From Gammaproteobacteria bacterium (lineage in GTDB: Bacteria; Pseudomonadota; Gammaproteobacteria; S012-40), in the NCBI GenBank assembly GCA_029884425.1, contig JAOUHV010000005.1, positions 15,791-79,790 on the forward strand: a DNA stretch of 64,000 nucleotides, in the 5' to 3' direction. Under the pieces are notes generated by a model that was not told the origin of the DNA, ran no database searches, and was given only the letters and a program-made list of their open reading frames with translations. The translations under genes and the position numbers were made by a program. Positions within the stretch are counted from its first letter, which is position 1, and each line of letters starts with the position of its first letter. Positions 10,108-59,693 of the stretch are shown here, piece after piece.

Positions 10108-10126
10108 TTCGTTTTACGATTCCGCG

Positions 10127-26301: not shown

Positions 26302-27492
26302 ATGATGGACTACCAAACTTTGCTGGCAGTGTTAATTGGCGTGTACTGTCTTCAGGCGATGGCGCTGATTATCACCTGGTACCAAAGTCGGAATGAGGAC
26401 GGTACTCGCGAGTGGGCTGCGGGCGGGGTTTGCATGGCCGCAGGGGCGCTGGTGGTGTTGATTGCCAGCACGATTGCTCACGGCGAAGAAATCGGCCAGC
26501 GAATGGTGCCAGTGACCAGTGCCGGCATTGCGCTGATTGCAACCGGCTGGCTGTTTCTGTGGGCGGGGATACGCCGATTTGTTAATCACCTGGATTTTTC
26601 TTCACATTATCTGGGTCTATTTTTTGTCTTGTTCTATATCTTATTGTTACAACAGCAGTTTTTTACCCTGCCCCTCGGTTGGATTGTGTTCTGTCTGGCG
26701 ACAGTGGTGGCGATTGCCAGTAGCCTGATTTTGGCTGAACTCATGGTGAGCCGCGAGCGTGCAAGTTTGATCAGCCAGTTTATGATGCTGTGCTTTGGTT
26801 TGACGGCACTGCTGTGGGGCGGTCGGGCCGCGTTGGCGTTGCTGGACATGGCGCGGCCACTGGGGACCTTGTTTGATGGCTTGCTGATGTATCAGGCGGT
26901 GTTGGTGACGGTGGCGGTGACCTTGGGGATGATCCTGATGACCACCGAGCGGGTACAAAAGCATCTGCGTGAACAGGCCTCCATTGATTCCCTGACAGGT
27001 TTGTACAATCGTCGCGCATTTCATGATGTAAGTCGGGCAGTGATTGCTGCCGCCGAACGCGATAAACAGCCGGTGGCCTTGGCGCTGCTGGATCTGGATC
27101 ACTTCAAATCCATCAATGATACTTTTGGTCACGGCGTGGGTGACAAGGTGCTGATGCGCTTTGCCAATTTGGCCGAGCTGACTTTTCGTGACCAGGACAT
27201 CCTGGCTCGCTTCGGCGGCGAGGAATTTGTGGTATTGTTGTCCGGTGCGGACGCCGATCAGGCAATGCGCGCATTGCAGCGCCTCCGCCAACGTCTGGAA
27301 ACTGAGTGCATCGAATACCAAGGGGTTTGTGTGCCCAGTACCGTGAGCATAGGCGTGAGTTGTCGGCGTCGCGGAAAAATTGATTTGCATGCCATGCTGG
27401 AAGAAGCGGACAAGGCGTTGTACGACGCCAAGCGCGCCGGTCGTAACCAGGTCATTATGTATCACCTGGGGGATGCGGTGCCGGCAATATAG
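26302..27492 (+). CDS. Membrane-bound diguanylate cyclase (GGDEF) with a polytopic N-terminal sensor domain
   Basis: ~6 TM helices, then a GGDEF domain with active site GGEEF and I-site RDQD. Confidence 0.85.
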   Translation: MMDYQTLLAVLIGVYCLQAMALIITWYQSRNEDGTREWAAGGVCMAAGALVVLIASTIAHGEEIGQRMVPVTSAGIALIATGWLFLWAGIRRFVNHLDFSSHYLGLFFVLFYILLLQQQFFTLPLGWIVFCLATVVAIASSLILAELMVSRERASLISQFMMLCFGLTALLWGGRAALALLDMARPLGTLFDGLLMYQAVLVTVAVTLGMILMTTERVQKHLREQASIDSLTGLYNRRAFHDVSRAVIAAAERDKQPVALALLDLDHFKSINDTFGHGVGDKVLMRFANLAELTFRDQDILARFGGEEFVVLLSGADADQAMRALQRLRQRLETECIEYQGVCVPSTVSIGVSCRRRGKIDLHAMLEEADKALYDAKRAGRNQVIMYHLGDAVPAI

Positions 27493-32536: not shown

Positions 32537-32710
32537 CTATGGGTGTTTGCTGGCTCCTAACTTTTGTGTAAAGCGTTTGACACCCTCCCAGCCAGCGAGC
32601 ACCGCAATCAACAACCCTATACCAAGTATGGGAGTCTTAATCACACTGACAATGCCGCCAAAAACAACGCCAAGAACAGGGATGATGATTTCAAAAGCAC
32701 GCTTGGACAT
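32537..32710 (-). CDS. Small (57 aa) two-TM membrane protein; absent from the ORF track because it is under 60 aa
   Basis: ATG preceded by GAGGA RBS; MSKRAFEIIIPVLGVVFGGIVSVIKTPILGIGLLIAVLAGW... Confidence 0.4.
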   Translation of the reverse strand: MSKRAFEIIIPVLGVVFGGIVSVIKTPILGIGLLIAVLAGWEGVKRFTQKLGASKHP

Positions 32711-32935: not shown

Positions 32936-34408
32936 ATGGTTCGTATTCTCCTGCTGCTGATGTTGCCGATCTCTGCCCTGGCATGGGACAGCATCGAGCA
33001 GTTGCCCATACCGGAAAGTCGGGCGATGGTGCCCCAGGAGCGTGGCACCTTCAATCAAGCGGTGACCGCAATGATGAGTGGCGACGATGCCACCGCACGC
33101 CAGTTGCTGGCGCCGATGGCGGCTTCCGGGATTACCGATGCGCAATTGTCGCTGGCTACCTTGTTATCGCGCTCGCAGGTAGAGGACGATCAAAAGGAAT
33201 CGGTTAAATGGTTCTATTTTTCCGCAAACGCTGGTGTGTGGCGTTCTCAGTTGGAAATGGCCAAAGCGTATCGGACAGGACGATATGTCGCCCAGGACAG
33301 ATTAAAAGCCTACAAATGGTTGGTGCGTGCTTTGCCCTTGGGGGGCATTGATGTTCTGCAGCAAATGGACGGGCTGGGCAAAGAGCTGTACGCAACCGCA
33401 ACGGCAGAGTTGGATAATGGCAAGACGGCGCGGGCAGTGGAAATACTGACGCCATTGGCAGAATCAGGAATGTTGCCAGCGCAAGAAAAACTGGCAGAAC
33501 TTTATGCCCAACCTCCCACCACTCAGGATAGGCGGCAAAAAATGCGGCTGTGGCTGGATAAGGCTGCCGCTCAAGGTTCACAGTCGGCGCAATATGCACT
33601 GGCGAACATGATTCTGACGATGCCAAGCACCGATGTTACAGAAAAAAATTACGCTATTTCGTTACTGGAAAAATCCGCCGCGCCCGGCAAGGCTGAAGCC
33701 CAATACCAGTTGGGGCGAATGTACATGACTGGCGATGGAGTGGCGAAAAACACCGAGAAAGGACTGTATTACTACCGAATTGCGGCTGAACAAGGTCATC
33801 GTGAGGCCCAGTACGCGTTAGGTGTGCGCTACACCTTGGGCGAGGGCGTTGCCAACGACGATTTCGAAGCCCACCGCTGGTTTAAGCAGGCTGCCAATGA
33901 AGGTCATGCCAAGGCGCAGTACAACCTTGCACTTAGCTATAAGCATGGGCTGGGAACGGCAGTACAGCCAGAAAAGGCGGACTACTGGTTTAAGAAAGCC
34001 GCAGCAGAAGGTCTGACGCGCGGTAACGATAGCAAGAAGGCAAAAAATTCAGATTTGACCAAGTTGCCGGCCGATGCCGGTAAAGGCACAAAAAAAAACT
34101 GGGTAGAGCAGGTGAACGGCGCTAAGTGGTTTGCTGCATTGCCCAAACAAGGTTTCACCATTCAGGTGGTGACAGGCAATGAAGCGGAAGCAATAAGGGC
34201 ATTCATTCAAAACAATAAGTTGGCTGAAAATAAATATTTTCACTACGTCCAGCATAGTGGCACCAATAGCCGTCATGTGGTGCAGTGGGGTTATTTCAGT
34301 AGCTACGAAGAAGCCAAAAAAGCGGCAATACAAATTTCCAAAGGTTATACCCAATTTAAGCCTTGGATCAGATCGGTCGACAGTGTCAAAAAGAGTCTGC
34401 ATAGCTAG
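32936..34408 (+). CDS. Secreted Sel1-like repeat (SLR) protein with a C-terminal SPOR (peptidoglycan-binding) domain; first gene of the stator/FliG-like operon
   Basis: Signal peptide MVRILLLLMLPISALA, multiple Sel1 repeats (AQYALGVRYTLGEGV, AQYNLALSYKHGLG...), C-terminal SPOR-like FTIQVVTGNEAEAIRAF...WGYFSSYEEAKKA. 19-nt gap to the motA-like gene. Confidence 0.7.
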   Translation: MVRILLLLMLPISALAWDSIEQLPIPESRAMVPQERGTFNQAVTAMMSGDDATARQLLAPMAASGITDAQLSLATLLSRSQVEDDQKESVKWFYFSANAGVWRSQLEMAKAYRTGRYVAQDRLKAYKWLVRALPLGGIDVLQQMDGLGKELYATATAELDNGKTARAVEILTPLAESGMLPAQEKLAELYAQPPTTQDRRQKMRLWLDKAAAQGSQSAQYALANMILTMPSTDVTEKNYAISLLEKSAAPGKAEAQYQLGRMYMTGDGVAKNTEKGLYYYRIAAEQGHREAQYALGVRYTLGEGVANDDFEAHRWFKQAANEGHAKAQYNLALSYKHGLGTAVQPEKADYWFKKAAAEGLTRGNDSKKAKNSDLTKLPADAGKGTKKNWVEQVNGAKWFAALPKQGFTIQVVTGNEAEAIRAFIQNNKLAENKYFHYVQHSGTNSRHVVQWGYFSSYEEAKKAAIQISKGYTQFKPWIRSVDSVKKSLHS

Positions 34409-34427
34409 GCAGAGGGAGAGATAGCTC

Positions 34428-35252
34428 GTGTTTATATCGTGGGACACCTTATTTGGAATGTTGGCAGGGTTCGGCCTGTTTGCCTTTGCCATTGTTTCAT
34501 CGACAGACAACGCAATGATTTTCTGGAGCGTGGCCAGCCTGGCGATGGTTATCGGTGGTACGTTTGCCTCGATCATTATTTCCTATCACTCGCGTTATGT
34601 GTTCAAAACATTTAAGGCGCTATTCGCGATGATGGTGCCCATGCAGGTTTCGCCAACAACATTGCTTGGTGATGTTAGGTTGCTGCTGGAGTGGAGTCAG
34701 GAAGTCAGACAAAACGGCACAGCGGTGTTGGATGACAAACTGGAAAATGCAAGCAACAAGATGGATGGCTTCACCAAATATGGTTTGCTATTGCTGACGA
34801 CGGGCTACAAGGGCGATGAGCTGCGTGAATTACTGGAAGAATTCAAAGAAACCATCTTTGAACGTGCACAAGTTCAGGTAGGCGTGCTGAAAACCATGGC
34901 GGCCTATGCGCCGGCATTTGGCATGATTGGTACGCTGGTTGGTTTGATCATTATGCTGGACAACTTGAAAGGGGATGTCAGCGGCTTGGGACAGGGGTTG
35001 GCACTGGCATTGATTACGACGTTATACGGTGTATTGGCAGCTAATCTGGTGTTTAAACCGGCGGCATTAAAAACCGACCAGAAAAACAATACTGCAAGAT
35101 TTAGAAATACATTAATGATCGAGGGTTTTGTGATGCTAAGTACCAAGACCGAGCCACTTAAGATGCAAGATAAATTGAATAGCTTTCTCGATCCCGAGTT
35201 GCATTTTGACATGCTCACTCCTGATGCCGGTAAAAAAGGGAAAAAGAAATAG
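34428..35252 (+). CDS. MotA/PomA-family stator protein (4-TM proton channel subunit), non-flagellar context
   Basis: Topology TM1-TM2, a ~110-aa charged cytoplasmic loop, then TM3-TM4 with PAFGMIGTLVGLI and ITTLYGVLAANL motifs. This matches MotA/PomA rather than the 3-TM TolQ/ExbB layout. Confidence 0.8.
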   Translation: MFISWDTLFGMLAGFGLFAFAIVSSTDNAMIFWSVASLAMVIGGTFASIIISYHSRYVFKTFKALFAMMVPMQVSPTTLLGDVRLLLEWSQEVRQNGTAVLDDKLENASNKMDGFTKYGLLLLTTGYKGDELRELLEEFKETIFERAQVQVGVLKTMAAYAPAFGMIGTLVGLIIMLDNLKGDVSGLGQGLALALITTLYGVLAANLVFKPAALKTDQKNNTARFRNTLMIEGFVMLSTKTEPLKMQDKLNSFLDPELHFDMLTPDAGKKGKKK

Positions 35253-35258
35253 CATCCT

Positions 35259-35975
35259 ATGTCGATTAAAAAACTGGGGCGTAGGCGCCGTGAACGCATG
35301 GAAAACAAGGATGAGGGTGAAGACTGGTTGCTTACCTATAGCGATACGGTCACGCTGATTATGACCTTCTTTGTGCTGATGCTGTCTGTGTCTACCATCG
35401 ATCAGGCAAAGTTCGATGCGGTTACCGAGGCGGTGAAAGAGCATGGTCTTTCCGGGAATGGCAAATATGTATCACCTTTTGAGGTTTTAAAAGAAAAAAT
35501 GGATCAGGTGACGACCAACTATCATCTGCAAAAAGACATGACGGTGGTACGAGAACCTAAGGGTTTGACTATCGAGTTGTCATCTTCAGCGCTGTATGAA
35601 GTAGGTAGTGCTGATATACAAGAAGAAGCCAAAAATGCCTTGAATGCTGTTGCTGAGGCCATCAAGAATTTTGAGTATCCACGCTATCGGATAGAAGTGG
35701 AAGGTCATACCGATGACGTGGCGATAAGTACACAGCGGTATCCATCCAATTGGGAATTGTCGGTACATCGTGCGACTAATGTGGTTCGTTATTTGACGCA
35801 GGAGGGCGTTCCACAAAGCAAGATGAAGGCTACAGGATATGCCGACACCAGACCTAAAGTGCCAAATTTGGACGACAACGGTGAACCAATTGCAGAAAAT
35901 CGGGCAATTAACCGAAGAATAGTTATACATGTGGAGCGTGACGACAACCCAGTCACCAAAGGGGATAAGAAGTGA
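35259..35975 (+). CDS. MotB/PomB-family stator protein with a C-terminal OmpA-like peptidoglycan-binding domain
   Basis: Basic N-terminus, single TM with the conserved Asp (LLTYSDTVTLIMTFFVLM), OmpA-like domain (NWELSVHRATNVVRYL...NRRIVI). Confidence 0.8.
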   Translation: MSIKKLGRRRRERMENKDEGEDWLLTYSDTVTLIMTFFVLMLSVSTIDQAKFDAVTEAVKEHGLSGNGKYVSPFEVLKEKMDQVTTNYHLQKDMTVVREPKGLTIELSSSALYEVGSADIQEEAKNALNAVAEAIKNFEYPRYRIEVEGHTDDVAISTQRYPSNWELSVHRATNVVRYLTQEGVPQSKMKATGYADTRPKVPNLDDNGEPIAENRAINRRIVIHVERDDNPVTKGDKK

Positions 35976-37090
35976 GTACGCAAACAACATATCACCAACG
36001 ACCGAATATGGTGCTGATGCTGATGATTGGTTTCGTTCTGCAAATGACCGTTTTTGGTGAGGTGCTGGCTGCTGAGACCGAAATCAAGCAGATCCGCTAC
36101 GGTGCACACAAGTCGGAAAATATGGCCTATGCCGATGAGTTAATGAAATTTAGTGAAATGCTGAATTCTGAGCAAATACTGTCGATGGCCGAATTGAATA
36201 AGATGGATTTCGCGGTTCGCTCGGTGGCGTTTTATCGCATTGGTGATCGACAGAATAAGTTGTTTGATCGTCATTTTTACGAAACGATCGAGCAGAAGAT
36301 GATTAACAAATTCACAGGTTTGAATCGTTTCTCCATACATGAATGTTTTGAATGTAAGACGACGCGGGTGTTGCTCAAGGAAAAGCAATTTTCAGTGCTT
36401 CGCCAATTGGATTCTAACGAGAGTCTAAAAGAGCTGGGTGAAAAAATAGGAGTAGATCACTTTATTCTGTGGGATGCCTACATGCACAAAGACAGCCCTA
36501 TGCTCAATATTCGTGTTGTGAGTGCGGCGAGTGGACAGGTTCGCTGGAGTCGGCAATATCAGGGTGAGCAGCAATTGCAAGAACTCAATTGGGAGTTTTA
36601 TACCTCGGTTTGGGGTGTTGAGGCGGTACGTCAAGCCAAAACAACGGCGAACTATGATTCTGTGGTTACGCCCATCATCGCGGTGGGTTTTCGTCGATTG
36701 GCAGAGTCGACGATTTCCAAGCGCTTATTCTACGGATATGGAGCTGAAGCTTTTTTTAACACCGAGGGACGCGCCGAAATTGATATATATGGTTTTGATG
36801 TTAACGGCCGCGTAGCGATTGAGTTGGATCCATCCCTGGGGATGGAAGATAAAACCTACGGTAACTGGTTGGCTTATTTTTCAGTGGGACAGGCATTTTT
36901 GTTGAATACGCCGACCCTGGTGATGCGTTCAGGTATCGAAATGCGGATCAATAAAAAGAGTTTTATCGATTTGGGAACGGTGACAATAAAAGAGAAAGAA
37001 TTTGAAGTGCGTGCCAATAGTAAATATGTCAGCAAGGCAACCATTGGCGGCACAAATTATGATCTAACCATTGGCTACCGATTTCAATGA
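35972..37090 (+). CDS. Secreted protein of unknown function, 372 aa, with a beta-rich C-terminal half
   Basis: Signal peptide; C-terminus ...NYDLTIGYRFQ is beta-strand-like. Translationally coupled to its neighbours by 4-nt overlaps. Confidence 0.45.
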   Translation: MSTQTTYHQRPNMVLMLMIGFVLQMTVFGEVLAAETEIKQIRYGAHKSENMAYADELMKFSEMLNSEQILSMAELNKMDFAVRSVAFYRIGDRQNKLFDRHFYETIEQKMINKFTGLNRFSIHECFECKTTRVLLKEKQFSVLRQLDSNESLKELGEKIGVDHFILWDAYMHKDSPMLNIRVVSAASGQVRWSRQYQGEQQLQELNWEFYTSVWGVEAVRQAKTTANYDSVVTPIIAVGFRRLAESTISKRLFYGYGAEAFFNTEGRAEIDIYGFDVNGRVAIELDPSLGMEDKTYGNWLAYFSVGQAFLLNTPTLVMRSGIEMRINKKSFIDLGTVTIKEKEFEVRANSKYVSKATIGGTNYDLTIGYRFQ

Positions 37091-37698
37091 GGATAGCAAT
37101 GATGAACAGAAAAAAATGGATAATTGGGCTGGCACTTCTGATGATATTGTCCGCATGCGGTACAACCGAAGAGCGACTGGATGCTGCTGAAAGTCAGGTA
37201 GCGGAATCATCGTCAGAAGAAGATTTGCCCGTGACACCCGAAGGAACGGCATTGACCAAGCAGCCAGGTATGATCAAGATTGAGCGGCACACACCAGGTT
37301 ACACCATCAGTATGATGCTGGATGCCACTGACGACAATGTATATTTTGTGATGGACTTGCCACCTGAGGAGCTGCAAAAGAATCAGGAGCCAGAGAATTC
37401 AAAGCAAACACCACAAAATAAGGCGTCCCAGTCGGTGCAAGACAATGGTTCTGGTGGTGCCAACAAACATGTCCTTTATGCCCAGACCTATTTTTTTGAA
37501 AAAAAATATGATCGCGCCATGAACGAAATAGATCGTTCGCTGGAAAAAGATCCAAACAATGCGGTGGCATATTCATTGAAAGGGTCGATCCACTATAAGC
37601 GTGGTGAAAAATCTAAAGCAGTACAGGCGTGGGAAAAGTCCCTGGAAATTGATCCAAACCAGGATAACGTCAAAAAAATGCTAAATAATCTGAAATAG
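37087..37698 (+). CDS. Outer-membrane TPR-repeat lipoprotein
   Basis: Lipobox LLMILSAC followed by G at +2; two C-terminal TPR repeats (YAQTYFFEKKYDRAMNEIDRSLEKDPNNAVAYSLKGSIHYKRGE...). Confidence 0.65.
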   Translation: MRIAMMNRKKWIIGLALLMILSACGTTEERLDAAESQVAESSSEEDLPVTPEGTALTKQPGMIKIERHTPGYTISMMLDATDDNVYFVMDLPPEELQKNQEPENSKQTPQNKASQSVQDNGSGGANKHVLYAQTYFFEKKYDRAMNEIDRSLEKDPNNAVAYSLKGSIHYKRGEKSKAVQAWEKSLEIDPNQDNVKKMLNNLK

Positions 37699-37712
37699 TT
37701 GGGTACGACACA

Positions 37713-39875
37713 ATGGCGTATTCGGTGAAGATAAGACTGGGTTCAATGCGGTGGCTGTTGCTGGGAATGATCGGCATGGTGTGGATGCCTGTGGCACAGC
37801 CGGAGGAAGAAACCCAGCGTGTTGCCGTAAGCCAGGTTGAGCAATCGCGATTTGACCGGGATCTTGAAGCCCGTTTAAGTCGAGACATTAAGGCATATTT
37901 GGATCACGATTTCTTTATCGTTCAAGCAAAATCTCTGCTGGAAAAATTAAACGCCTATGAAACCAGTAAGCAAAAAATAACCGTTCCGGTAGAACCATCG
38001 GCGCAGCAAGCCAAAGCGCAGCAGCAACAGGATGCAGCACGACAGGAGTTGCTGAATCAAATGGAGTTGGAAACAGAAGACGGCATTAATGCGCAAAATG
38101 CAGAGCAAGCCGAAGATGTGAGCGATCTTGCCTTGCCAGGCTTGCCAGTTTCAGAACAAACATTTGCACAGCAAACCAATGCGCAACAGAAACAACGTCA
38201 GGCTCAGAAACAGCCAATGATGTCGGCGCCGGTTCCACAAATGACCCCTGCATTTGAAACGCGTGAAGAAACCAAAAAAGAGTTGAAGGACTCGCGCATT
38301 GATATCAAACAATTGTCCGTCAAAGTGGTGTTGGATAATCATGTAACACCCGAGCAGGAAACGTTTATTCGCAATCTGGTAATTGAAAAAGCCAATGTGA
38401 ATTTTATCCGTGGCGATGAGTTACGGCTGGTCAGAACAAATTTTCCGGGTGCGACGGTGCTTGATCCCAAGCCTGTTGAAGAAAAGGCAGAAGATAAAGA
38501 AGAAAAATCAGTTGAGCCGGAAAAACCGCTGCCAACGGAGGCGGAGAAAGATGCACAACAGCGCGCACTGGCGTGGCTGGAACAATATTGGCCATATCTC
38601 GCAGCAATCTTAGCGCTGGTGTTGTTGTGGTTGATGTTGCGGCGCAACAATAAAGCTCAGACTAATGCCCCATCGGCTCAAACCACACCGGTGAGTGATT
38701 CCAAAGATAAGCTGGATGCATTTATCGAAAAATTGAGCTTTGCTCAGGATAATGTGGCCGACCAGAAATTGCGTGCACTACGCGAAGAGCTGGTGAGTAT
38801 GACGGTGACTGAGCGAAACCTGTTTACCGGGCAAATGGTGGATTGGTTGAATGCCGGCGGTCAGGAGGATGTGGCGCGTGTCGCGGCGGTAGTGAATCTC
38901 GTCGGTCCCGGCTTAATGGTAGGTTTGCTCAAGGGACAGATCGACGGCGAGAAATTAATGGGCCTGTTGGCCATGGCTGAGGAGTTGGCGCGGGATAATT
39001 CGCCATCTGAGTTGATGGAAAAAGTTGAACAGGCCTATCAAACCCTGGCACGTCGGCGCTTGCAGGAAAATATTACTGAGGAACATAAAATTCGGCCGTT
39101 CGATTTCCTTGAGCGCTTGAATGATGATCAAATTCTGTATTTGTTAAATGACGAGCGTATGCCTGTGCGTGCGTTGGTTTATTCGCAATTGCCAGCGGAG
39201 CGTGCAGCTGGATTGCTCAAGCGCATTGGTGGTGATGATCGTGCCGCCTTGGCCATGGAAATCAGTCGTTTTTCGCATTTGCCGGCAGCATCGTTCCGCG
39301 ATATCGCAAATCGTTTGGCGCGCAAGGCAGTGGATGTGCCCAGCTTTGCCAATATTGCGGTGGATGGCGTGGATGTGCTTATCGGCATGCTGGATCATCT
39401 CGATAGTTCTGAGGAAACAGCATTGTTGCTCAACGTCCGTCAGACCAATCCCGATTTGTACTATCGCATCAAGCAGGTGTACATCAGCTTTAATGATCTG
39501 GTGAGCTTGCCTACATTGGCGCTGAAGAATTTGATTCGCGAAGTCAGTCGCGAGGATTTGGCGATGGCTTTGCACGATGTTGACGATACTTTCCGTGATA
39601 CGATTCTGGCTTCTATGCTTGAGCGGCCGCGTGCCATGCTGGTTGCTGCGATCCGGGACTTGAAGGATGTGAATCCGCTGGCAGTGAATGAAGCCAAGCG
39701 CAAGGTAGCGCGCCGCGCCCGCTCCATGCTCAAAGCCGGTGAATTTAAATTGCCGTCGCCAGAAGCCAAAACCGCACAATCGACGCCTAAGCCCAAAGCG
39801 GCAACGGCTGAGGCTCCGTCAGGCAAGCCCGCGCCGCCTGCACCTCCTCCCCCGCAAGCGCCACCATCCAAATAA
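37713..39875 (+). CDS. Two-TM inner-membrane protein with a FliF-RBM3-like periplasmic segment and a cytoplasmic full-length FliG-like (N/M/C) module: a candidate minimal FliF-FliG-fusion-like rotor protein
   Basis: TM1 at ~aa 13-27; periplasmic aa 28-292 with a Gln/Ala-rich region and IDIKQLSVKVVLDNH...RGDELRLVRTNFPG (compare FliF IERLSVAVVVNY...RGDTLNVVNSPF); TM2 LAAILALVLLWLML; FliG_M-like IRPFDFLERLNDDQILYLLNDERMPVRALVYSQLPAERAAGLL; FliG_C-like FNDLVSLPTLALKNLIREVSREDLAMALHDVDDTFRDTILASMLERPRAMLVAAIRDL...; Pro-rich tail. Confidence 0.6.
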   Translation: MAYSVKIRLGSMRWLLLGMIGMVWMPVAQPEEETQRVAVSQVEQSRFDRDLEARLSRDIKAYLDHDFFIVQAKSLLEKLNAYETSKQKITVPVEPSAQQAKAQQQQDAARQELLNQMELETEDGINAQNAEQAEDVSDLALPGLPVSEQTFAQQTNAQQKQRQAQKQPMMSAPVPQMTPAFETREETKKELKDSRIDIKQLSVKVVLDNHVTPEQETFIRNLVIEKANVNFIRGDELRLVRTNFPGATVLDPKPVEEKAEDKEEKSVEPEKPLPTEAEKDAQQRALAWLEQYWPYLAAILALVLLWLMLRRNNKAQTNAPSAQTTPVSDSKDKLDAFIEKLSFAQDNVADQKLRALREELVSMTVTERNLFTGQMVDWLNAGGQEDVARVAAVVNLVGPGLMVGLLKGQIDGEKLMGLLAMAEELARDNSPSELMEKVEQAYQTLARRRLQENITEEHKIRPFDFLERLNDDQILYLLNDERMPVRALVYSQLPAERAAGLLKRIGGDDRAALAMEISRFSHLPAASFRDIANRLARKAVDVPSFANIAVDGVDVLIGMLDHLDSSEETALLLNVRQTNPDLYYRIKQVYISFNDLVSLPTLALKNLIREVSREDLAMALHDVDDTFRDTILASMLERPRAMLVAAIRDLKDVNPLAVNEAKRKVARRARSMLKAGEFKLPSPEAKTAQSTPKPKAATAEAPSGKPAPPAPPPPQAPPSK

Positions 39876-39880
39876 CCGCA

Positions 39881-39909
39881 AAGAGAGCTATTGGCTCTCT
39901 TTGTTTTTG
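39881..39909 (+). terminator. Rho-independent terminator ending the stator/FliG-like operon
   Basis: aagagagc-tattg-gctctctt hairpin plus a T-run. Confidence 0.7.
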
Positions 39910-40241: not shown

Positions 40242-41480
40242 TTGTTAATTGGACTGTCTATGTCAAAAGCTAGCAAACCTGTGATCCATAGGTTGCGGTG
40301 CTGCGTTTTAGTGGCATTGCTGGCTTTGCCGTTGCTCAGTTGGGCGGAGGACCGGGTGATGTCAGTCTATACGATGGGAGCTGTGACCATCCTGCCAAGT
40401 GTAGGCCTGGAATACCGGCATGACGATAATATTTTTTCCGCCAACCAGGGTCAGAAGGCATCTGATGTAGGTGTAGCAAATTCGAGCATTGCCGCCAAAA
40501 TCAGCAATGATATTAGCGAGGGCGCGCTGTTGTACTCGGTAGAGAAAGGCACTTATCAAAGCAGCCCCGAGGATGACTATCTGGATCAGCGAGCAGGACT
40601 TGGTTTTCATCATGCGTTTCGGCGATGGGCCATCATTGATCTCGCGTTAGGGCAAGATCAGTTGCACGAAGCGCGTGGGCAAGGTTACAGCCAGGGTAAA
40701 GCTGATTTACTGCCAGCGCCGGATTTATATGTCACAGATACGGCGAATTTCCTGTTTCGGCTGGGGACGCGGCGATCACAAGGTATGTTTGAATCGCAAT
40801 TGGCGGGAACTTCGCTGCGCTATACCACACGTGAGGCACAAACCGCGGGCCGGAATAACGATTACATTTCCGGACGACTGACCTACCATTTTAATCTTTC
40901 CAGCAAAACCAGTTTGCTCGCAGAAACGCGTTATGGGCAGTACGACTACATCAACGAAACCTCGCTCATTCGTCGTGACAGCAGTGAGCAGCACTATTAT
41001 CTCGGGTTGTCGTGGGAGCTCAGTAGTCTTAGTCGAGGTTCCATCAGAGTCGGACAGCAAAAAAAGATATTTGTTGATCAGGCATTGATGGCGGATAGCA
41101 GCAATAGTTGGGAAATGAAGCTGTTCTGGAAGCCAACACCACTGGCGAGCATCAAATTCGGTACGTCTGCAAAAAATCAGGAAAGTGTGGGAATGGGCAG
41201 TCATGTTTACAGTGAGGCTGGATTTTTCGCGATCAAAAACTCACTGACCAAGCGGTTGGGCATGGATATGAGTACGCAAATCACCAAGAACAGCTATCGC
41301 CCAAGCGGACGCAACGAGCTGTTGGGAGCAGTTGCAGCCAAAGTGATTTATAGCTCGAATCGCTGGATACATCTAGATTTCGGCATAGATCATGAACAAC
41401 GTAGAAGTGACCAGGCGATGATGAATTATCGCCGAAGCATCGTCAGCATGGGGATTCGAATCAGTCCGAAAGATGATTAA
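40242..41480 (+). CDS. Outer-membrane beta-barrel protein, putative partner of the short Wza-like exporter
   Basis: Signal peptide, alternating amphipathic beta-strand pattern throughout. 8-nt overlap with the downstream Wza-like gene. Confidence 0.5.
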   Translation: MLIGLSMSKASKPVIHRLRCCVLVALLALPLLSWAEDRVMSVYTMGAVTILPSVGLEYRHDDNIFSANQGQKASDVGVANSSIAAKISNDISEGALLYSVEKGTYQSSPEDDYLDQRAGLGFHHAFRRWAIIDLALGQDQLHEARGQGYSQGKADLLPAPDLYVTDTANFLFRLGTRRSQGMFESQLAGTSLRYTTREAQTAGRNNDYISGRLTYHFNLSSKTSLLAETRYGQYDYINETSLIRRDSSEQHYYLGLSWELSSLSRGSIRVGQQKKIFVDQALMADSSNSWEMKLFWKPTPLASIKFGTSAKNQESVGMGSHVYSEAGFFAIKNSLTKRLGMDMSTQITKNSYRPSGRNELLGAVAAKVIYSSNRWIHLDFGIDHEQRRSDQAMMNYRRSIVSMGIRISPKDD

Positions 41481-42225
41481 GCCAAACGTAGCACGGATAT
41501 GGATTGGGATATGGCTGTGCTTGCTGGTGGCAAGTGCTGGTGCGTTTGATCGCGCCTACACATTGGGTACCGGTGATGTAGTGTCTATTCAGGTATTTGG
41601 TGAACCGGAATTAAGCCTGCAATTGCGCATTGATGACAGTGGAAATATTGCCTATCCCCTGTTGGGAGAGTTACCCATCGCTGGTCAGACATTGAATGGA
41701 CTGGAACAAATTTTGATTACTCGCCTTAAAGGTGGCTATCTGATCGATCCCAAAGTCAGTGTGTCGGTGATCGAATATCGGCAGTTTTTCATAAATGGCG
41801 AAGTCAGCAAGCCCGGAGGGTATCCATACATTCCCGGTTTGACTTTGCGCAAGGCGATTGCTCTTGCCGGCGGCATGACTGAATTGGCGTCGGTTGATCG
41901 TATTACCTTGATTCGTGAACACGATGTATCACGCACCGAAGTTTCAGTAGATATGGAAGCCAAGGTATTGGCTGGCGATATCATTACGGTTAAAGAATAT
42001 AAAAAAATATTTATTCATGGCGAAGTAAGGAAACCGGGAAGCTATGGTTATAGCCCTGACTTGACCGTGAGAAAAGCGATCGCGTTGGCTGGCGGTTTAA
42101 CTGAGCGAGGTTCGGAAGGCAAGGTGACATTGCAGCCGGACAACGGAACAGGAAAGCGCGTCGAATTGCTGGACGAAAAAGTGACCCCCGGGGATTTAAT
42201 AACCGTTGGTGAACGGTTTTTTTGA
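41473..42225 (+). CDS. Short Wza-like periplasmic polysaccharide export protein (Poly_export plus SLBB domains, no C-terminal OM helix)
   Basis: 250 aa with signal peptide, a PES motif region and duplicated SLBB (ITLIREHD.../KVTLQPDNG...). Lacks the Wza D4 helix. Confidence 0.85.
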   Translation: MIKPNVARIWIGIWLCLLVASAGAFDRAYTLGTGDVVSIQVFGEPELSLQLRIDDSGNIAYPLLGELPIAGQTLNGLEQILITRLKGGYLIDPKVSVSVIEYRQFFINGEVSKPGGYPYIPGLTLRKAIALAGGMTELASVDRITLIREHDVSRTEVSVDMEAKVLAGDIITVKEYKKIFIHGEVRKPGSYGYSPDLTVRKAIALAGGLTERGSEGKVTLQPDNGTGKRVELLDEKVTPGDLITVGERFF

Positions 42226-42234
42226 GGGATGTAG

Positions 42235-44391
42235 GTGAAAAAACAGGATCATGCACGGCAGGAGCAGCCTGACGACGAGATCGACCTGCGCGAATATTGG
42301 CGAGTAATTAATCGACGCAAGTGGTCGATATTGGCGTTCGCCGGTAGTGTTTCACTGATTACCACGTTGGTGGTCTATTCTTTATCCCCGATATATCAGG
42401 CGACAGCGACTGTATTGATCGAATCGCCACAAAAAAATGCGACCAGTTTGGAGGAGGTTTATGGACTGGAACGAGTCGGCAATGAGTTTTTCAAAACCCA
42501 AGTCGAGATACTGAAATCCCGCGAATTGGTTGATCGAGTTGTCGGTGAACTAGGGCTGTTGGAGAATCCTGAATTTTCCATGAAAAACAATAATGGATAT
42601 CGGGAGAAGTTAGCATCTATTCTTCCATTTCTCCATCAGCCAGAGAAGGAATTAACAGTTGAAGAGCGGAAAAATGAGATTGTTCGTAGCATCTCGAGTA
42701 GTTTGAATGTTTCTGATATTCGCGGTACCCAGCTTGCCAAAGTTAGTTTTGAAAGCCATGACCCGGTGATGGCAGCCAAAGTAGCTAATAAATTTGTCGA
42801 TGCCTACATTGAGTACAATTTTGATATTCGTCTGGCAGCCCGAGACAAGTCATTGGCATGGTTAAATGAACGGTTGGGGCCGCTTAAAAATTCGTTGTCT
42901 GAGTCAGAAAAAAAGCTGCAGCAATATCGTGAACAGCAAGGGTTGGTGGATGTCGAGGGTGTCAGGAGTCTGGTAGCCAAAGAATTGAATGAAATCACCG
43001 TGGATTTTGTTGAAGCCAGGACAAAGCGGGCGCAGCTGGAAAACGTGCTTCAACAAATTGGAAATGGTGATGAATGGATCAACAATCCGACGATACTAAA
43101 TCACCCTGCGATGCAGAAATTGATTGGTCAGCGGGCCGATGCAGAGCAGCAGTTGTCCGAATTGGGGAAAAGGTATGGGGCAAAGCATCCGAAAATGGTT
43201 GCGGCACAGAACCAGCTTCTGGCCGTTCAGAAAAATATGCAGCAGCAGCTTTCAGGTGTGGTTGAAAGCATTAAAAAGGATTACCTGATAGCAAAAAATA
43301 ATGAAAATTCGCTACAAAAAAACATGGATAAAGTAAAGGAAGAAGTCCAGGATATAAATCGCAAGGAGCATCAGCTTAATGAGCTTGTGCGAGAGGTGGA
43401 TGCCAATCGCAAAGTATATGAGTCATTTTTAACCCGGTTTCAGCAAACGGGAGCACTTGGAAGTTATGATCAGGTGAATATTCGTTTGGCTGAAGCTGCG
43501 GCCGTCCCTATTTCTCCATCAAAGCCTAACAAAAAACTTATTATCGCACTGTCATTTATGGCAAGTATTATGTTGGCTGTTATGGCTGCTTTCTTTCTTG
43601 AGTTTATCAATAACGGTGTTCGCCGGATTGAAGATGTTGAAAATAAATTGTCGCAGCGATTGCTGGGTATTGTTCCCCAGGTTGCGGTTGATGATGAAAG
43701 CAGACTAAAACCAGAGAGCATATTTTCGGATGAAAATCTTCGTTCTATGGCGGAGTCAATGCGTGCCGTGAGAACGGCCATGTGTCGTTCAGGTGCGGAA
43801 AAATCCAAAATTATTTTGGTCACATCCTCTTTGCCTGGCGAGGGGAAGACGACGGTGTCATGCGCGCTTTCCTATGCATTCGCGCAGATTGAAAGGGTGC
43901 TGTTGATTGATGCGGATATGCGGAAGCCATCGGTTAGTAAACTATTTTCCATTCCGCATAAGCATAGGGGCTTGAGCAATCTGATTGTTGGTGAGCCCAA
44001 TGTTAGGGATTGTTTTTTAGTGCAGCCAAATGCCAATCTGACGGTTGTTCCATCTGGGGTTGTTCCTGCAAATCCATCGGAGCTTCTATCTAGCGATCGG
44101 TTTGCTATGATGCTGAAAAAATTGGCGAAACATTACGATCGAATAATTATTGACTCACCACCGATTCATGCAGTCAGTGATGCACTGATTATTTCTCGTC
44201 TGGTGGATGAGGTGGTGTATGTCGTTAAATCGGATGCGACGCCCTTGCCGGTTGTGAAGGAAGGTATTGCCCGTTTGCAGCAGGCGGATGTCAAAATGGC
44301 CGGGGTTGTTCTGAATCATTTTAACGTACGAGAGGCTGATTACTATCAGTACTACTATGGCAGTTACGACTACACTACAGCAAAGAGCTAG
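42235..44391 (+). CDS. Wzc-like polysaccharide co-polymerase / BY-family tyrosine autokinase
   Basis: Wzz-like N-domain with two TMs and a coiled-coil periplasmic region, Walker A SSLPGEGKTT, Walker A'/B, C-terminal Tyr cluster YYQYYYGSYDY. Confidence 0.88.
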   Translation: MKKQDHARQEQPDDEIDLREYWRVINRRKWSILAFAGSVSLITTLVVYSLSPIYQATATVLIESPQKNATSLEEVYGLERVGNEFFKTQVEILKSRELVDRVVGELGLLENPEFSMKNNNGYREKLASILPFLHQPEKELTVEERKNEIVRSISSSLNVSDIRGTQLAKVSFESHDPVMAAKVANKFVDAYIEYNFDIRLAARDKSLAWLNERLGPLKNSLSESEKKLQQYREQQGLVDVEGVRSLVAKELNEITVDFVEARTKRAQLENVLQQIGNGDEWINNPTILNHPAMQKLIGQRADAEQQLSELGKRYGAKHPKMVAAQNQLLAVQKNMQQQLSGVVESIKKDYLIAKNNENSLQKNMDKVKEEVQDINRKEHQLNELVREVDANRKVYESFLTRFQQTGALGSYDQVNIRLAEAAAVPISPSKPNKKLIIALSFMASIMLAVMAAFFLEFINNGVRRIEDVENKLSQRLLGIVPQVAVDDESRLKPESIFSDENLRSMAESMRAVRTAMCRSGAEKSKIILVTSSLPGEGKTTVSCALSYAFAQIERVLLIDADMRKPSVSKLFSIPHKHRGLSNLIVGEPNVRDCFLVQPNANLTVVPSGVVPANPSELLSSDRFAMMLKKLAKHYDRIIIDSPPIHAVSDALIISRLVDEVVYVVKSDATPLPVVKEGIARLQQADVKMAGVVLNHFNVREADYYQYYYGSYDYTTAKS

Positions 44392-44397
44392 GCGATT

Positions 44398-45090
44398 GTG
44401 TTTGTAGGAAAGATGAAAAAAATCGTAATTGTATTTGTCATGGTTTTCATCGCATATGTTGTCGTTCAGGCGAGTCGAATATTTTTAAGCAGTGCCAATG
44501 CATCCAGTGTTTACGCCCAGATTGCTTATTTGGAGTCCAAGCCATCGGTAGATGGCTTTCAGTGGCAAACTTTGGCGGAGAAGCTAAGTTTTTCACGTTG
44601 GCTGAATGGGGATAGCCCAGATTATCGTGATGTAGAGCAAATGCTTCTGCTGCGGTCGGGTGAAGTGCGGCCTGGAAGTGTCCTGGAGCAATATCGATTA
44701 CTGCTCAGGCAGCGGCCTTCGTGGCCCTATGCATGGTTAAATCTTCTGGTAGCCAAAGGTCACGCCAAAGAGTTTGATGAAGAATACCATCACGCCTGGG
44801 CGCGGCTGGCGGTGTTGGCACCGTGGGTCAAAAAAGTGAATGCCGCACTTCTGGTGGAAGGTTTGCGTGATTGGGATGAATTGGACGACGCTACCCGTGC
44901 ATTGGTAGTCGATGTTGTCGCAAACGGCTTGTCTATGCATCCCTCAATTGTCGACGTACAGTTGAAAGAATATCAACGGAGGTTCCAGCTTTGTGCGGAA
45001 CTGGAGGTAAATCAACGCGCCGTGCTGTCATGCACTGACGATGCATCATTCGATGCCGTTTTATCAACAGGCGACGAAGCGCATGAGTAG
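44398..45090 (+). CDS. Hypothetical membrane-anchored protein, 230 aa
   Basis: N-terminal TM; no recognisable motif. Confidence 0.35.
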   Translation: MFVGKMKKIVIVFVMVFIAYVVVQASRIFLSSANASSVYAQIAYLESKPSVDGFQWQTLAEKLSFSRWLNGDSPDYRDVEQMLLLRSGEVRPGSVLEQYRLLLRQRPSWPYAWLNLLVAKGHAKEFDEEYHHAWARLAVLAPWVKKVNAALLVEGLRDWDELDDATRALVVDVVANGLSMHPSIVDVQLKEYQRRFQLCAELEVNQRAVLSCTDDASFDAVLSTGDEAHE

Positions 45091-46564
45091 TCCTTATTTC
45101 TCTCATGAACGATGTGGTGTTGAGAAAGCGATTTTTACATTGCTGCTGGTCGTTTTGTTTATTGCGCCATGGCCACTGGGAAGTAATCGGGATTGGGCAT
45201 GGCCGGTGATTTCTGTCTTGCTGGCGATTGCCGCCTTGCTCTATGTTTGTTTTTACGGTATTTGCTTCACGGCCAGTGCGGCGCTGCGACAGGCGCGCTG
45301 GGCTGTTGCTTGTTTTTTGTTGCTCATTATCTGGCAAGTGCTGCAATCGTTGCCATTACCTACTGCTTGGATAAATGCTCTGTCGACTGGTGCGGCACAA
45401 CTTTATTTGGCAACAGATGCGCGACTGGAAAATGTGCCGTTATCGCTTGACGCTTATGCGACGTCGCTGGCTTGGATGAAGACGCTGACTTATGTGCTGA
45501 TGTTTGTGTTGTTGTTGCAACTGACAACCAATCGAACTCGTCTTCAATGGTTGTTTGGGGTGGTGGTGATCAGTGGCTTGTTGCAGGCGTGTTATGGCAG
45601 TTTAATGGCGTTGACCGGCGCGTCTCAGGGTGTCTTTATTCAAAATAATGATGTTTCATCAGCCACAGGCAGTTTTGTGAATCGCAATCATTTTGCGGGG
45701 TTCCTAGGTTTGTGTCTGGCAATGGGCACGGGCTTGTTGGTGGCAAAATTATCAACGACACCGGCAACAAATTTGCGCCAGTTTGCGCGCCAATCCCTTG
45801 TTACATTGCTGGGTGAAAAGGCGCGTCTACGCCTAGCGCTGGCGATGATGGTGATTGCATTGGTGCTGAGTCACTCCCGAATGGGGAATAGCGCATTTTT
45901 TATCAGTTTGTTGCTGACGAGTGTGCTGGCGTTGGTAGTGCTGTGGTGGCGACGCAAGCGCAATGGCAATCGGCGACATCATCGTCACTGGCGACCGGTG
46001 ATATGGCTAGTGACCAGTTTGATGGTGATTGACATTGCGATTGTTGGTGCATGGTTTGGGGTCGATCGAGTGGTTGAGCGCTTGCAAAATACCTCCATGC
46101 AGACTGAGTCCAGGGATGAGGTTAATCAGTACGGAATGGCGGTGCTGGAGGATTATTGGCTCACTGGGGTGGGCGGCGGAGCCTATTACGTGGTGTTACC
46201 AGGCTATCAAGATGAGAAATTCACTGGATTTTATGACCAAGCTCACAATGATTACCTGCAGTTTGCCATAGAACTGGGGGTGCCGGCCGCTATAGTTTTG
46301 GCAATGGTGGTGTTTTTGGCGCTGGCGGCGGCTTTGAAGGCGCTGTTGTTGCGCCGTTCCACGTTTTATTTTGGGGTGGCATTTGCAGGATTTATGGCTG
46401 TTTCGGGTTTATTGATGCACTCATTTGTCGATTTCAATTTGCAGATTCCTGCCAATGCGCTTTATTTTGTGACTGCGTTGGCGTTGTGTTTTATCGCTGA
46501 AACACTGGAGTCGAAGCGCTACCATCGTGGCGATGTGCCCACCCATGGAGAGCATTCATCATGA
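45083..46564 (+). CDS. O-antigen ligase / Wzy_C-family polytopic membrane protein (polymerase or ligase-like)
   Basis: ~10 TMs, FVNRNHFAGFLGLCLA and SHSRMG loop motifs typical of the Wzy_C family. An alternative upstream ATG lies at 45041. Confidence 0.65.
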   Translation: MSSPYFSHERCGVEKAIFTLLLVVLFIAPWPLGSNRDWAWPVISVLLAIAALLYVCFYGICFTASAALRQARWAVACFLLLIIWQVLQSLPLPTAWINALSTGAAQLYLATDARLENVPLSLDAYATSLAWMKTLTYVLMFVLLLQLTTNRTRLQWLFGVVVISGLLQACYGSLMALTGASQGVFIQNNDVSSATGSFVNRNHFAGFLGLCLAMGTGLLVAKLSTTPATNLRQFARQSLVTLLGEKARLRLALAMMVIALVLSHSRMGNSAFFISLLLTSVLALVVLWWRRKRNGNRRHHRHWRPVIWLVTSLMVIDIAIVGAWFGVDRVVERLQNTSMQTESRDEVNQYGMAVLEDYWLTGVGGGAYYVVLPGYQDEKFTGFYDQAHNDYLQFAIELGVPAAIVLAMVVFLALAAALKALLLRRSTFYFGVAFAGFMAVSGLLMHSFVDFNLQIPANALYFVTALALCFIAETLESKRYHRGDVPTHGEHSS

Positions 46565-47160
46565 AAAAATATCTGGTTGTGCTGATTTTGTTTGGCTGGT
46601 TGTTGGGTGCGCCAGTTCATGCCGGTGTGGCAGAGGATATTCGTGCTGGGGTGTCGTACAAAACGGCAATTGCCAAAGGTTTGCGGGCGGGTGAAACTAT
46701 TGAACAGGTGTTGCGACAAGCGTTATTTGCTGCCCCCAAGCAAAAAGCGGCGGTGCTTGCAGCTGCATTAAATACTGCGCCGAAGATGGCTGATCGTATT
46801 GTGCGTGCCGCTATTGGCATGGGTATCCATGCGGGCGATATGGTGAAACTGGCGGTGCGGGTTTTGCCAAAGCAATCTGAGCTGATTGTTGCGGCGGCGG
46901 TTGATGTTGCTCCAGCGAAATTGTCGCAAATATTAAAAGGCGCAGTGGCGGGTGGAATGTCGCAAGCTTCTGCAGTGGAAGCGGCAATAAAGCAAATGGG
47001 TAATTTGGCGATGGAGGGTCCGATGACTGCGGCATTGCGAAATAACAAAGCACTGGACGCAGTAGAGCCCGAGCTGGAAGAAGACGCCGTTGCGATGCCG
47101 GTAATGATTGTTATTCCGCCCAGCCGTGGTGGTGATGCGGATGTGGTTAGTTTTAACTAG
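46561..47160 (+). CDS. Secreted Ala-rich protein with internal ~33-aa repeats
   Basis: Signal peptide MKKYLVVLILFGWLLGAPVHA; repeats AAPKQKAAVLAAALNTAPKMADRIVRAAIGMG / VLPKQSELIVAAAVDVAPAKLSQILKGAVAGG. Confidence 0.4.
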   Translation: MKKYLVVLILFGWLLGAPVHAGVAEDIRAGVSYKTAIAKGLRAGETIEQVLRQALFAAPKQKAAVLAAALNTAPKMADRIVRAAIGMGIHAGDMVKLAVRVLPKQSELIVAAAVDVAPAKLSQILKGAVAGGMSQASAVEAAIKQMGNLAMEGPMTAALRNNKALDAVEPELEEDAVAMPVMIVIPPSRGGDADVVSFN

Positions 47161-48662: not shown

Positions 48663-49256
48663 GTGTGGCTGAGTAGGGAGATGAGGCGCATGAAACAGAT
48701 CATACCGTGGCTGTGGTTACTCGTATTGTTCCCCATCGTCGTGTTGACGATATCCAATCCAATAAAAATTCTATTGCCCCAGCTGGCTGGCGTGAAATGT
48801 GTCGAGACCTGGCTTTGCGTGGAAGATCTTGCTCAGGCGGATAAAGCTCGGCAGTTGTATTTGCGGGCATTGGGGCGAGTGGAAAATAAATTATCCGCAT
48901 TTCAGAACAAGCCTTTGCTGGTTTTTTGTACAAGCCAGTCGTGTTTTTCCAGTTTTGGTTTTAAAAATGAGGCCGGGCAATCCATCGGTAGCATGGGTGC
49001 GGTGATTGCACCGCGAGGCTGGCTGCTGCATTTTGTGGAGCATGAGCTTATTCATCAATGGCAGGCGCAGCAGTTTGGGGTGGCGGCGACCTGGGCGGCA
49101 CCCCGGTGGTTGTCCGAGGGAATGGCTTATTCCATGAGTGGTGATCCCCGACACCAATTGGTGGCGCCGTATCAAGGCTATCGCGAGATATTCGAAGCAA
49201 AGTTTAGCCATTTGTCCAAAGATGTATTGCTGTTGATGTTGCGAGCGTCGTTTTAA
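48663..49256 (+). CDS. Hypothetical protein with an HExxH motif, possibly a metallopeptidase-like fold
   Basis: N-terminal TM/signal; VEHELIHQWQ. Confidence 0.35.
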   Translation: MWLSREMRRMKQIIPWLWLLVLFPIVVLTISNPIKILLPQLAGVKCVETWLCVEDLAQADKARQLYLRALGRVENKLSAFQNKPLLVFCTSQSCFSSFGFKNEAGQSIGSMGAVIAPRGWLLHFVEHELIHQWQAQQFGVAATWAAPRWLSEGMAYSMSGDPRHQLVAPYQGYREIFEAKFSHLSKDVLLLMLRASF

Positions 49257-59526: not shown

Positions 59527-59620
59527 TGGGACACAAACTGTTAAAAAGCCTTAGAAAATAGTCGAGCGATTATATAGAATACGGGCTGGTCGTTAAAACG
59601 ATATTTTTTGATCAGGCCGA

Positions 59621-59649: not shown

Positions 59650-59693
59650 TGCGCCCCTTTCATTGACCTGATGTCAAGTGGAGTAAACGAATA

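Follow-up and report, generated by a model that had tools for sequence, protein, structure and literature searches.

A six-gene gammaproteobacterial operon joins a flagellar-type stator and a single-chain FliF/FliG-like rotor protein to predicted outer-membrane partners

Introduction

Until now, the rotor proteins of the flagellar motor have been associated with flagella (PMC12199754). What might such proteins do in an operon that contains a stator and envelope proteins and nothing else of the flagellum? The question is raised by six genes (p1 to p6, Table 1) on a 64-kb stretch of gammaproteobacterial DNA (contig JAOUHV010000005.1, positions 15,791 to 79,790; hereafter the window), which encode a Sel1-repeat and SPOR protein (p1), a MotA-like and a MotB-like stator subunit (p2 and p3), a predicted outer-membrane (OM) barrel (p4), a predicted OM lipoprotein (p5) and a FliF/FliG-like rotor protein (p6). 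A first-pass annotation, made from the letters of the sequence and a list of open reading frames (ORFs), had proposed that these genes specify an autonomous rotor/stator machine with a non-flagellar output. The co-inheritance of the genes and the missing flagellar features described below support that proposal, rotation and ion coupling still being what we infer. We conclude that the operon probably encodes a self-contained, non-flagellar, envelope-spanning motor built on a flagellar-type rotor/stator pair.

The stator and its coupling to the rotor

As judged by sequence comparison, p2 and p3 are a full-length stator of the flagellar type, not of the ExbB/TolQ or ZorA type. Protein p2, an A subunit of the four-TM kind (TM, transmembrane), matched the Pfam family MotA_ExbB and could be aligned end to end, torque domain included, with the MotA of PDB entry 6ysf (1.2e-35) and with PomA (5.5e-24); it scored 4.5e-43 with the NCBIfam model MotP against 0.0052 with ExbB, and 0.0047 with ZorA. 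Protein p3 matched MotB_plug (1.5e-17) and OmpA (8.8e-20) in Pfam and MotD (1.2e-50) in NCBIfam. The genes for rotor, barrel, lipoprotein, MotA and MotB recur together elsewhere, as set out below, and are here called the module; over its non-redundant sequences, the equivalents of the MotA prolines P173 and P222 were present in 59/59 MotAs and the TM Asp in 56/56 MotBs. The charged residues of the torque interface were kept less strictly, with Arg or Lys at the equivalent of MotA R90 (R94 in the window) in 49 of the 59 MotAs and Asp or Glu at that of E98 (D102 in the window) in 47. Neither subunit reached an NCBIfam equivalog cutoff (MotA/PomA/MotP, best 147 bits for p2 with a cutoff of 394; MotB/MotD/MotS, best 172.5 bits for p3 with a cutoff of 283), and p2/p3 thus form a distinct stator subfamily rather than an ortholog of any named stator. 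Module MotAs scored higher with one another (185-231 bits) than with any solved flagellar MotA (126 bits).

The residue at the MotA R90 position was found to covary with that at the rotor D289 position: 42 pairs were basic/acidic, 5 basic/non-acidic, none non-basic/acidic and 9 non-basic/non-acidic (Fisher p = 2.6e-7, uncorrected for phylogeny). All five basic/non-acidic pairs came from the window's clade, and the nine non-basic/non-acidic pairs came from at least five lineages with identities of 41% or less. A rotor-stator contact of the R90-D289 type is known from E. coli, and a module relying on such a contact would be expected to show this charge covariation. The Thr residues at the positions of PomA T158 and T186 were invariant in module MotAs, yet both are present in the MotA of 6ysf as well, so they favour neither H+ nor Na+ as the driving ion. 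At one locus (L036, 10150-10939) the module MotA was broken into two ORFs of 131 and 137 amino acids; a frameshift, a fault in the assembly or a pseudogene might account for this.

A rotor protein in one chain

In the AlphaFold2 (AF2) model, p6 is a FliF S-ring/beta-collar fold, a TM helix and the FliG N, M and C domains within a single chain. NCBI labels it just "FliG C-terminal domain-containing protein". Pfam and NCBIfam recognised FliG_M and FliG_C, together with a match to YscJ_FliF_C that stayed below threshold. An N-terminal signal or TM segment (residues 5-28) precedes the periplasmic part, in which a fold of the ring-building motif RBM3 plus beta-collar is formed by residues 32-92 and 181-244 and split by a disordered loop; the second TM helix lies at about residues 291-311, and the cytoplasmic FliG domains follow at 330-460 (N), 472-542 (M) and 575-680 (C). 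The predicted local distance difference test (pLDDT) values of the FliF-like segments were 82-93. Domains N, M and C of FliG, the last with a charged torque helix, were thus all found in p6, where the equivalent of torque-helix residue R281 (R638 of p6) is Arg or Lys in 72/74 rotors of the family and that of D289 (position 646) is Glu or Asp in 48/74.

Two features of a flagellar rotor are missing. The FliF-like part of p6 consists of the RBM3/beta-collar fold, with no RBM1 or RBM2, the domains that house the type III export gate in FliF. Of EHPQR, the motif by which FliG binds FliM, the p6 family retains only the Glu (E481, 74/74), while the H, P and Q positions vary (S/D, D/I/L/T and R/E/G, respectively). 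With neither this housing nor the FliM-binding motif, a p6 ring would carry no rod, hook, filament or switch complex. Other positions are held almost or fully invariant across the family, among them F463, F465, E481, Q492 and A532 and the RGD motif (R in 73, G in 74 and D in 74 of 74). In the LPGLP motif each of the five positions is kept in 68-73 of the 74 members, and its loop is a candidate docking site for periplasmic or OM partners. In the window and its closest relative P0002, p6 has a C-terminal tail rich in Pro and Ala (...APPAPPPPQAPPSK; window 39765-39872, about residues 685-720) that is missing from the other homologs in the alignment.

Envelope partners

The domain calls of the first-pass annotation (Sel1/SPOR, MotA, MotB, TPR and FliF/FliG-like) stood, apart from p4, which it had described as a secreted beta-rich protein. 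No family in Pfam or NCBIfam matched p4; its model has a periplasmic alpha/beta domain resembling LpoB and the N-terminal domain of TolB (about residues 37-200) and a C-terminal eight-stranded beta-barrel (about 207-371). On this model p4 is an OM barrel, the strands being antiparallel and ending in a C-terminal aromatic beta-signal as in OmpA/OmpX/OmpW-like proteins. A CxxC pair (C125 and C128) is invariant in the window's clade and was rejected as a feature of the family, each Cys occurring in only 28-29 of 64 members. Protein p5 matched TPR_2 in Pfam (1.6e-11); 97% of 67 homologs retain the lipobox Cys and none has Asp at +2, and p5 is predicted from sequence to be an OM lipoprotein.

The remaining protein, p1, matched Sel1 (4e-35) and SPOR (2e-7) in Pfam and occurs solely in the window and the four loci that share its gene order (L002 and L005-L007). 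It is a clade-specific accessory and a candidate scaffold between stator and peptidoglycan. Elsewhere a Sel1 protein without SPOR adjoins the rotor gene (L035), and in the distant variant L087 a SPOR domain is fused to the C-terminal end of MotB. SPOR domains typically mark septal peptidoglycan, and their independent recurrence on the MotB of this variant suggests that the anchor is denuded peptidoglycan, which is typically septal or polar.

Distribution and co-inheritance of the module

A word-indexed protein search returned 26 relatives of p6 and 21 of p4, and a rerun with broad alignment gave nothing more. The tiny rotor family that these numbers imply was an artefact of sensitivity, as became clear when 1.84 billion representatives were searched exhaustively with HMMER and 230 rotor-family clusters reached E <= 1e-30. 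Of the top 150 clusters, almost every one is 560-780 amino acids long with a common architecture; counted in clusters at 50% identity, we put the family at no fewer than 150 and perhaps as many as about 230. When a single genome was scanned for each of 185,579 species, 28 module loci emerged, three of them in metagenome-assembled genomes (MAGs) labelled Ectothiorhodospiraceae or Gammaproteobacteria and 25 in Oceanospirillales (Thalassolituus, Oleispira, Bermanella, Oceanobacter and Bacterioplanoides); a metagenome scan added 46 further loci. Named hosts are Gammaproteobacteria, a Bacteroidota MAG, assigned because the flanking proteins share 90% identity or more with those of a named MAG, and an Elusimicrobiota MAG. 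Exact-sequence cluster look-ups yielded hosts in these last two phyla only, and NCBIfam matches of the genes flanking marine loci gave no taxonomic information. One of the 25 Oceanospirillales loci, labelled as a Crocinitomicaceae (Bacteroidota) MAG (L028, JBLHVV010000051.1), has the barrel-first gene order and its best scores to Bermanella loci, and is probably a misbinned gammaproteobacterial contig.

In all, 88 places were compared, namely the window and 87 loci; iterated hidden Markov models for the five core proteins were run on the loci, and for further representatives gene tables were read. Rotor, barrel, lipoprotein, MotA and MotB occur together in 61 of them, in three gene orders: Sel1/SPOR-MotA-MotB-barrel-lipoprotein-rotor (order A, the window and 4 loci), barrel-lipoprotein-rotor-MotA-MotB (order B, 26 loci) and rotor-barrel-lipoprotein-MotA-MotB (order C, 30 loci). 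A further 16 places end at a contig edge and agree with the module as far as their sequence goes. The co-conservation that the annotation had wanted to see for six genes therefore holds for five, Sel1/SPOR being confined to one clade. The five core proteins are mutually orthologous across all three orders. Locus GC spans 0.33-0.70 and rotor identities fall to 17-30%. No part of the module is linked more tightly than the trio of rotor, barrel and lipoprotein. In the window's clade the six operon genes are the only genes common to the loci and the flanks differ; in Oceanospirillales the module sits in a conserved housekeeping context across genera.

Genes for cyclic-di-GMP or other signalling recur near the module without being universal or consistent. 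GGDEF genes were seen in the window (26302-27492, +), in L006 (12048-13190, -) and in L084 (1-651), in L003 (1866-2957), L004 and L069 a GAF and HD (HD_5) gene runs at its end into the start of the rotor gene, and response regulators lie near the rotor in L086.

A proposed mechanism and its alternatives

From the domain and fold identities, the conserved catalytic residues and the co-inheritance we infer how the module might work. Subunits p2 and p3 would form an ion channel of the MotA5B2 type, anchored to peptidoglycan, through which ion flow would rotate the MotA pentamer. Protein p6 may oligomerise into an inner-membrane ring, and MotA pentamers pushing on its FliG_C torque helices could turn it, as happens in the flagellar motor. 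Through the LPGLP loop the periplasmic collar of p6 would contact OM-anchored p4 and p5, and in the window's clade p1, with its Sel1 repeats and SPOR domain, may be an extra scaffold that is bound to peptidoglycan and is the functional analogue of MotX/MotY.

Several observations weigh against a self-contained motor of this kind. The module is known here through genes and predicted structures alone, and among its parts no filament, adhesin, secretin or enzyme was identified that could serve as an output element; tethering to the OM could also prevent free rotation. The FliF kinship of p6 comes from the AF2 model and weak sequence signals (4e-4; Pfam below cutoff), and a profile of the N-terminal part alone recovered no FliF from the PDB, so that the relationship rests on the fold and on weak whole-protein profile signals. 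In the window's own clade the D289 equivalent is Ala, Ser or Thr (Ala at position 646 of the window's p6). Eleven of the 88 places deviate from the five-gene set. Six loci of one subgroup (L075-L080) carry rotor, barrel and lipoprotein with MotAB not adjacent; L033 (8001-11709) pairs the rotor with a KAP-family NTPase; L035 (6048-11746) and L085 (222-4994) have a FliF-like protein of 422-451 amino acids and TPR proteins before the rotor and no MotAB, the separate FliF-like protein of L085 matching PF08345 at 27.3 bits, above cutoff; the rotor of L086 has other neighbours; and L087 (5009-12699) encodes a 995-residue TPR protein, the rotor, a 177-residue protein, MotA and the MotB-SPOR fusion. 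Many loci are near-duplicates or close relatives, so the counts are not independent, although locus GC and rotor identity cover the wide ranges given above; most of the metagenomic loci carry no taxonomic assignment. Finally, cultured carriers are flagellated, and there may be cross-talk between module and flagellum.

In an alternative that we think unlikely, the module is a Tol/Ton-like force transducer: the MotAB-like unit, acting much as TolQR or ExbBD do, pulls on or remodels p6, which relays proton- or sodium-motive energy through the periplasm to the OM barrel and lipoprotein. A freely turning p6 ring is not needed for this, and the output would be OM tethering, lipoprotein mobilisation or the maintenance of septal or polar envelope. 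The partners do resemble those of Tol-Pal, with an OM lipoprotein, an OM-anchored domain like TolB-N or LpoB and peptidoglycan-binding OmpA and SPOR domains, of which SPOR typically marks the septum; the tight linkage of rotor, barrel and lipoprotein fits as well, and OM anchoring would hinder rotation. However, the A subunit is a flagellar-type MotA with a full torque domain rather than a TolQ or ExbB, p6 still has the FliG_C torque helix as well as the RBM3/beta-collar fold from which rings are built, the charge covariation with MotA points to a FliG-type interface, and no elongated partner like TolA or TonB is present.

Could the module instead serve the flagellum of its host, as an alternative rotor/stator set, a stator reservoir, a brake or a periplasmic scaffold? 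Its parts are flagellar homologs, and Sel1 repeats with peptidoglycan-binding domains recall the MotX/MotY T-ring. Moreover, T. hydrocarbonoclasticus alknpb1M-1 (CP054475, L001) and T. pacificus 59MF3M-4 (L012), in the genus Thalassolituus, carry the module, and both species owe their motility to one polar flagellum (PMC9807766). These flagellated carriers make the module an addition to the flagellum and not its replacement, and they do not support the anti-correlation with classical flagella that the first-pass annotation had wanted tested. Even so, we consider an accessory role quite improbable. Within 8-10 kb of the rotor no flagellar gene was found where flanks were inspected (elsewhere only the module families were searched), and in those flanks the module lies among housekeeping genes, away from flagellar ones. 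It has its own OM barrel and lipoprotein throughout, its rotor lacks RBM1/2 and has lost the FliM-binding motif, and p1 falls below the MotX equivalog threshold. It also occurs in a Bacteroidota and an Elusimicrobiota MAG; to our knowledge Bacteroidota as a phylum have no flagella. The same features (no RBM1/2, EHPQR lost, no flagellar genes in inspected flanks, the two MAGs) make the module look unlike a dispersed piece of a canonical flagellum, which the annotation had named as a finding that would refute its proposal.

MotAB homologs can also serve in defence, as in Zorya, and a MotAB-like sensor of envelope perturbation, signalling through p6 in an anti-phage or envelope-stress response, was considered. 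Protein p3 matches ZorB models (7.5e-19), a distant rotor homolog (that of L033) adjoins a KAP-family NTPase, flanks vary in the window's clade and the operon's GC is below that of its upstream neighbourhood. We rejected this very improbable reading: the PADLOC matches reflect the generic MotB fold only, ZorA reached just 0.0047, p4, p5 and p6 had no PADLOC match, no nuclease or other effector domain was present, and the conserved housekeeping context across Oceanospirillales genera is unlike that of a defence island. That the operon is a functionless, decaying remnant of a lost flagellar system is almost certainly wrong, since although flagellar remnants are known in non-motile lineages (PMC12199754), here every ORF is whole, the residues of catalysis and of the motifs do not vary even at identities down to 17-30%, and the gene set has been kept through three rearrangements and in three phyla with two non-flagellar partner genes.

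Operon layout and genomic surroundings

The operon consists of six co-directional ORFs with successive spacings of 19, 6, -4, -4 and 14 nt, exactly as first annotated (Table 1). The mechanical ORF of p1 begins at a TTG (32882), and the ATG at 32936 is the sensible start because the signal peptide MVRILLLLMLPISALA opens directly there. The terminator that the annotation had placed after p6 was confirmed: the hairpin at 39879-39903 with its T-run has a folding energy of -17.9 kcal/mol (z = -3.86), and none of 200 shuffled sequences was as stable. The next gene is 333 nt away. Rfam and tRNA scans found no element inside or beside the operon.

Table 1. Coordinates of the operon genes, motifs of p6 and the terminator in the window
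Feature	Coordinates	Strand	Description
p1	32936..34408	+	periplasmic Sel1-repeat protein with C-terminal SPOR domain, 490 aa, signal peptide
p2	34428..35252	+	MotA/PomA-like flagellar-type stator A subunit, 274 aa, with the torque-generating domain in the cytoplasm
p3	35259..35975	+	MotB-like stator B subunit, 238 aa: plug, TM helix with ion-binding Asp29, OmpA-like peptidoglycan-binding domain
p4	35972..37090	+	predicted outer-membrane protein, 372 aa: signal peptide, periplasmic domain, 8-stranded beta-barrel
p5	37087..37698	+	predicted outer-membrane lipoprotein, 203 aa: lipobox LSAC, acidic linker, conserved middle segment, C-terminal TPRs
p6	37713..39875	+	single-chain FliF/FliG-like rotor protein, 720 aa
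LPGLP motif	38133..38147	+	p6 residues 141-145, disordered loop between two long beta-hairpins (AF2 model)
RGD motif	38409..38417	+	p6 residues 233-235, second half of the RBM3-like domain
Torque-helix equivalent of FliG_C	39615..39668	+	p6 residues 635-652, MLERPRAMLVAAIRDLKD; from alignment to T. maritima FliG
Intrinsic terminator	39879..39908	+	stem of at least 10 bp, loop of 3-5 nt, then TTTTT

Upstream of the operon, petABC and a cytochrome c gene lie on the opposite strand, and the remainder of the window consists of housekeeping genes apart from a polysaccharide export locus downstream. Genes for fliM/fliN, flhA/B, fliPQR, rod, hook or filament are absent from the 64 kb, and domain scans of about 45 other ORFs found none that is flagellar, in agreement with the annotation. 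GC in the operon region (34001-38000) is 0.45-0.46 against 0.50-0.60 in the upstream half (1-30000); together with the non-conserved flanks in the window's clade, this suggests that the operon may have been acquired laterally.

The downstream locus (40242-46564, +) encodes polysaccharide export and polymerisation proteins, namely a BBP2_2 beta-barrel porin, a Wza-like protein with Poly_export and SLBB domains, a Wzz/GNVR/tyrosine-kinase protein and a Wzy_C polymerase. A link between it and the operon was rejected, as it lies beyond the terminator and is conserved with the module in no related locus. A small hydrophobic ORF (MSKRAFEIIIPVLGVVFGGIVSVIKTPILGIGLLIAVLAGWEGVKRF..., fewer than 60 aa, about 32552-32710, -) lies within the 500-nt intergenic region upstream of p1. 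Several ORFs of 155-543 aa had no Pfam match at the thresholds applied (5988-7619, 10055-10861 (-), 11288-11956 (-), 44398-45090, 46561-47160, 48663-49256, 54073-54561 (-) and 59541-60113 (-)); some may be spurious and others uncharacterised genes. A single long mechanical ORF at 55631-57136 (-) contains both CoaE (dephospho-CoA kinase) and ZapD domains, and is probably two neighbouring genes joined by an upstream start, or else a genuine fusion.

Significance

If the preferred reading of a self-contained motor is right, the module is a conserved and widespread "half motor" with its own OM partners, and what is new is a flagellar-type motor without a flagellum and with new partners in the OM. 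It would add a class of output to the ion-driven 5:2 motor family. For structural work it would offer a natural FliF-FliG ring of single chains. Genetics and cryo-tomography are within reach in carriers that have been cultured, namely Thalassolituus hydrocarbonoclasticus, T. pacificus, T. maritimus DSM 24913 and Bermanella sp. R86531. The module also bears on a possible stepwise evolution of the flagellar motor. A bolder and rather doubtful extension makes it a rotary engine of FliF/FliG-type ring and MotAB stators only, which split off early from the flagellar motor or is its ancient, independent sibling, and which turns against or drives an OM complex without type III apparatus or filament and to an end other than swimming; were this true, it would be living evidence that a rotor-stator core can work and be selected alone, and could serve as a model of how the motor stood, in evolution, before the flagellum.

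Comparison with known systems

In the published literature we found no description of this gene set, consistent with the annotation's failure to recognise it, nor does the module appear in recent surveys of how stators evolved and how flagella were lost. The combination of an inner-membrane, ion-driven motor with periplasmic or OM partners, among them lipoproteins, TPR proteins and OM barrels, is shared with TolQR-TolA-Pal, ExbBD-TonB, GldLM of the type IX secretion system (T9SS), AglRQS-Glt and ZorAB. Those systems use A subunits of the TolQ, ExbB, GldL or ZorA type and elongated periplasmic transducers, and none has a FliG/FliF-like rotor, whereas the A subunit of the module is of the flagellar type and no TolA or TonB domain was found by Pfam in any operon protein.

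The T-ring of Vibrio, with its Sel1 protein MotX and OmpA-like MotY, had been invoked in the first-pass annotation, and the echo holds as an analogy: p1 likewise joins Sel1 repeats to a peptidoglycan binder in the periplasm, beside a PomA-like stator. The binder, however, is SPOR where that of MotY is OmpA-like, most module loci have no p1, and its 49.6 bits with the MotX equivalog NF047621 are far below the cutoff of 330, so the resemblance is one generic to Sel1 repeats.

For the fusion in p6 the nearest precedent is the FliF-FliG protein of Chlamydiaceae, a natural single chain of about 330 amino acids that joins a shortened FliF to FliG sequence with no flagellum in context; it keeps RBM2, lacks the RBM3/SpoIIIAG-like domain, has a FliG_M-like segment only and no MotAB partner, and is thought to be related to the injectisome (Bergeron 2016, PMC4768692). 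By contrast, p6 has RBM3 and the collar instead, all three FliG domains and its own stator. The engineered FliF-FliG fusions of Salmonella and Vibrio (e.g. PDB 8z4d/8z4g), which show that such chains can form rings, are laboratory constructs with full-length FliF in a complete flagellum.

Of the known systems, the flagellar rotor/stator itself comes closest. The stator of the module has the plug, the Asp, the prolines and the charged torque-interface residues of MotAB/PomAB, and p6, as modelled, combines the RBM3/beta-collar fold of FliF with a TM helix, the N, M and C domains of FliG and the torque helix. The module differs from the flagellar motor core in that FliF and FliG are one polypeptide with neither RBM1/RBM2 nor EHPQR, and from the flagellum in having no linked genes for FliM/N, export apparatus, rod, hook, filament or L/P rings; it is linked instead to a predicted eight-stranded OM barrel and a TPR lipoprotein, neither of which has a counterpart in the flagellum.

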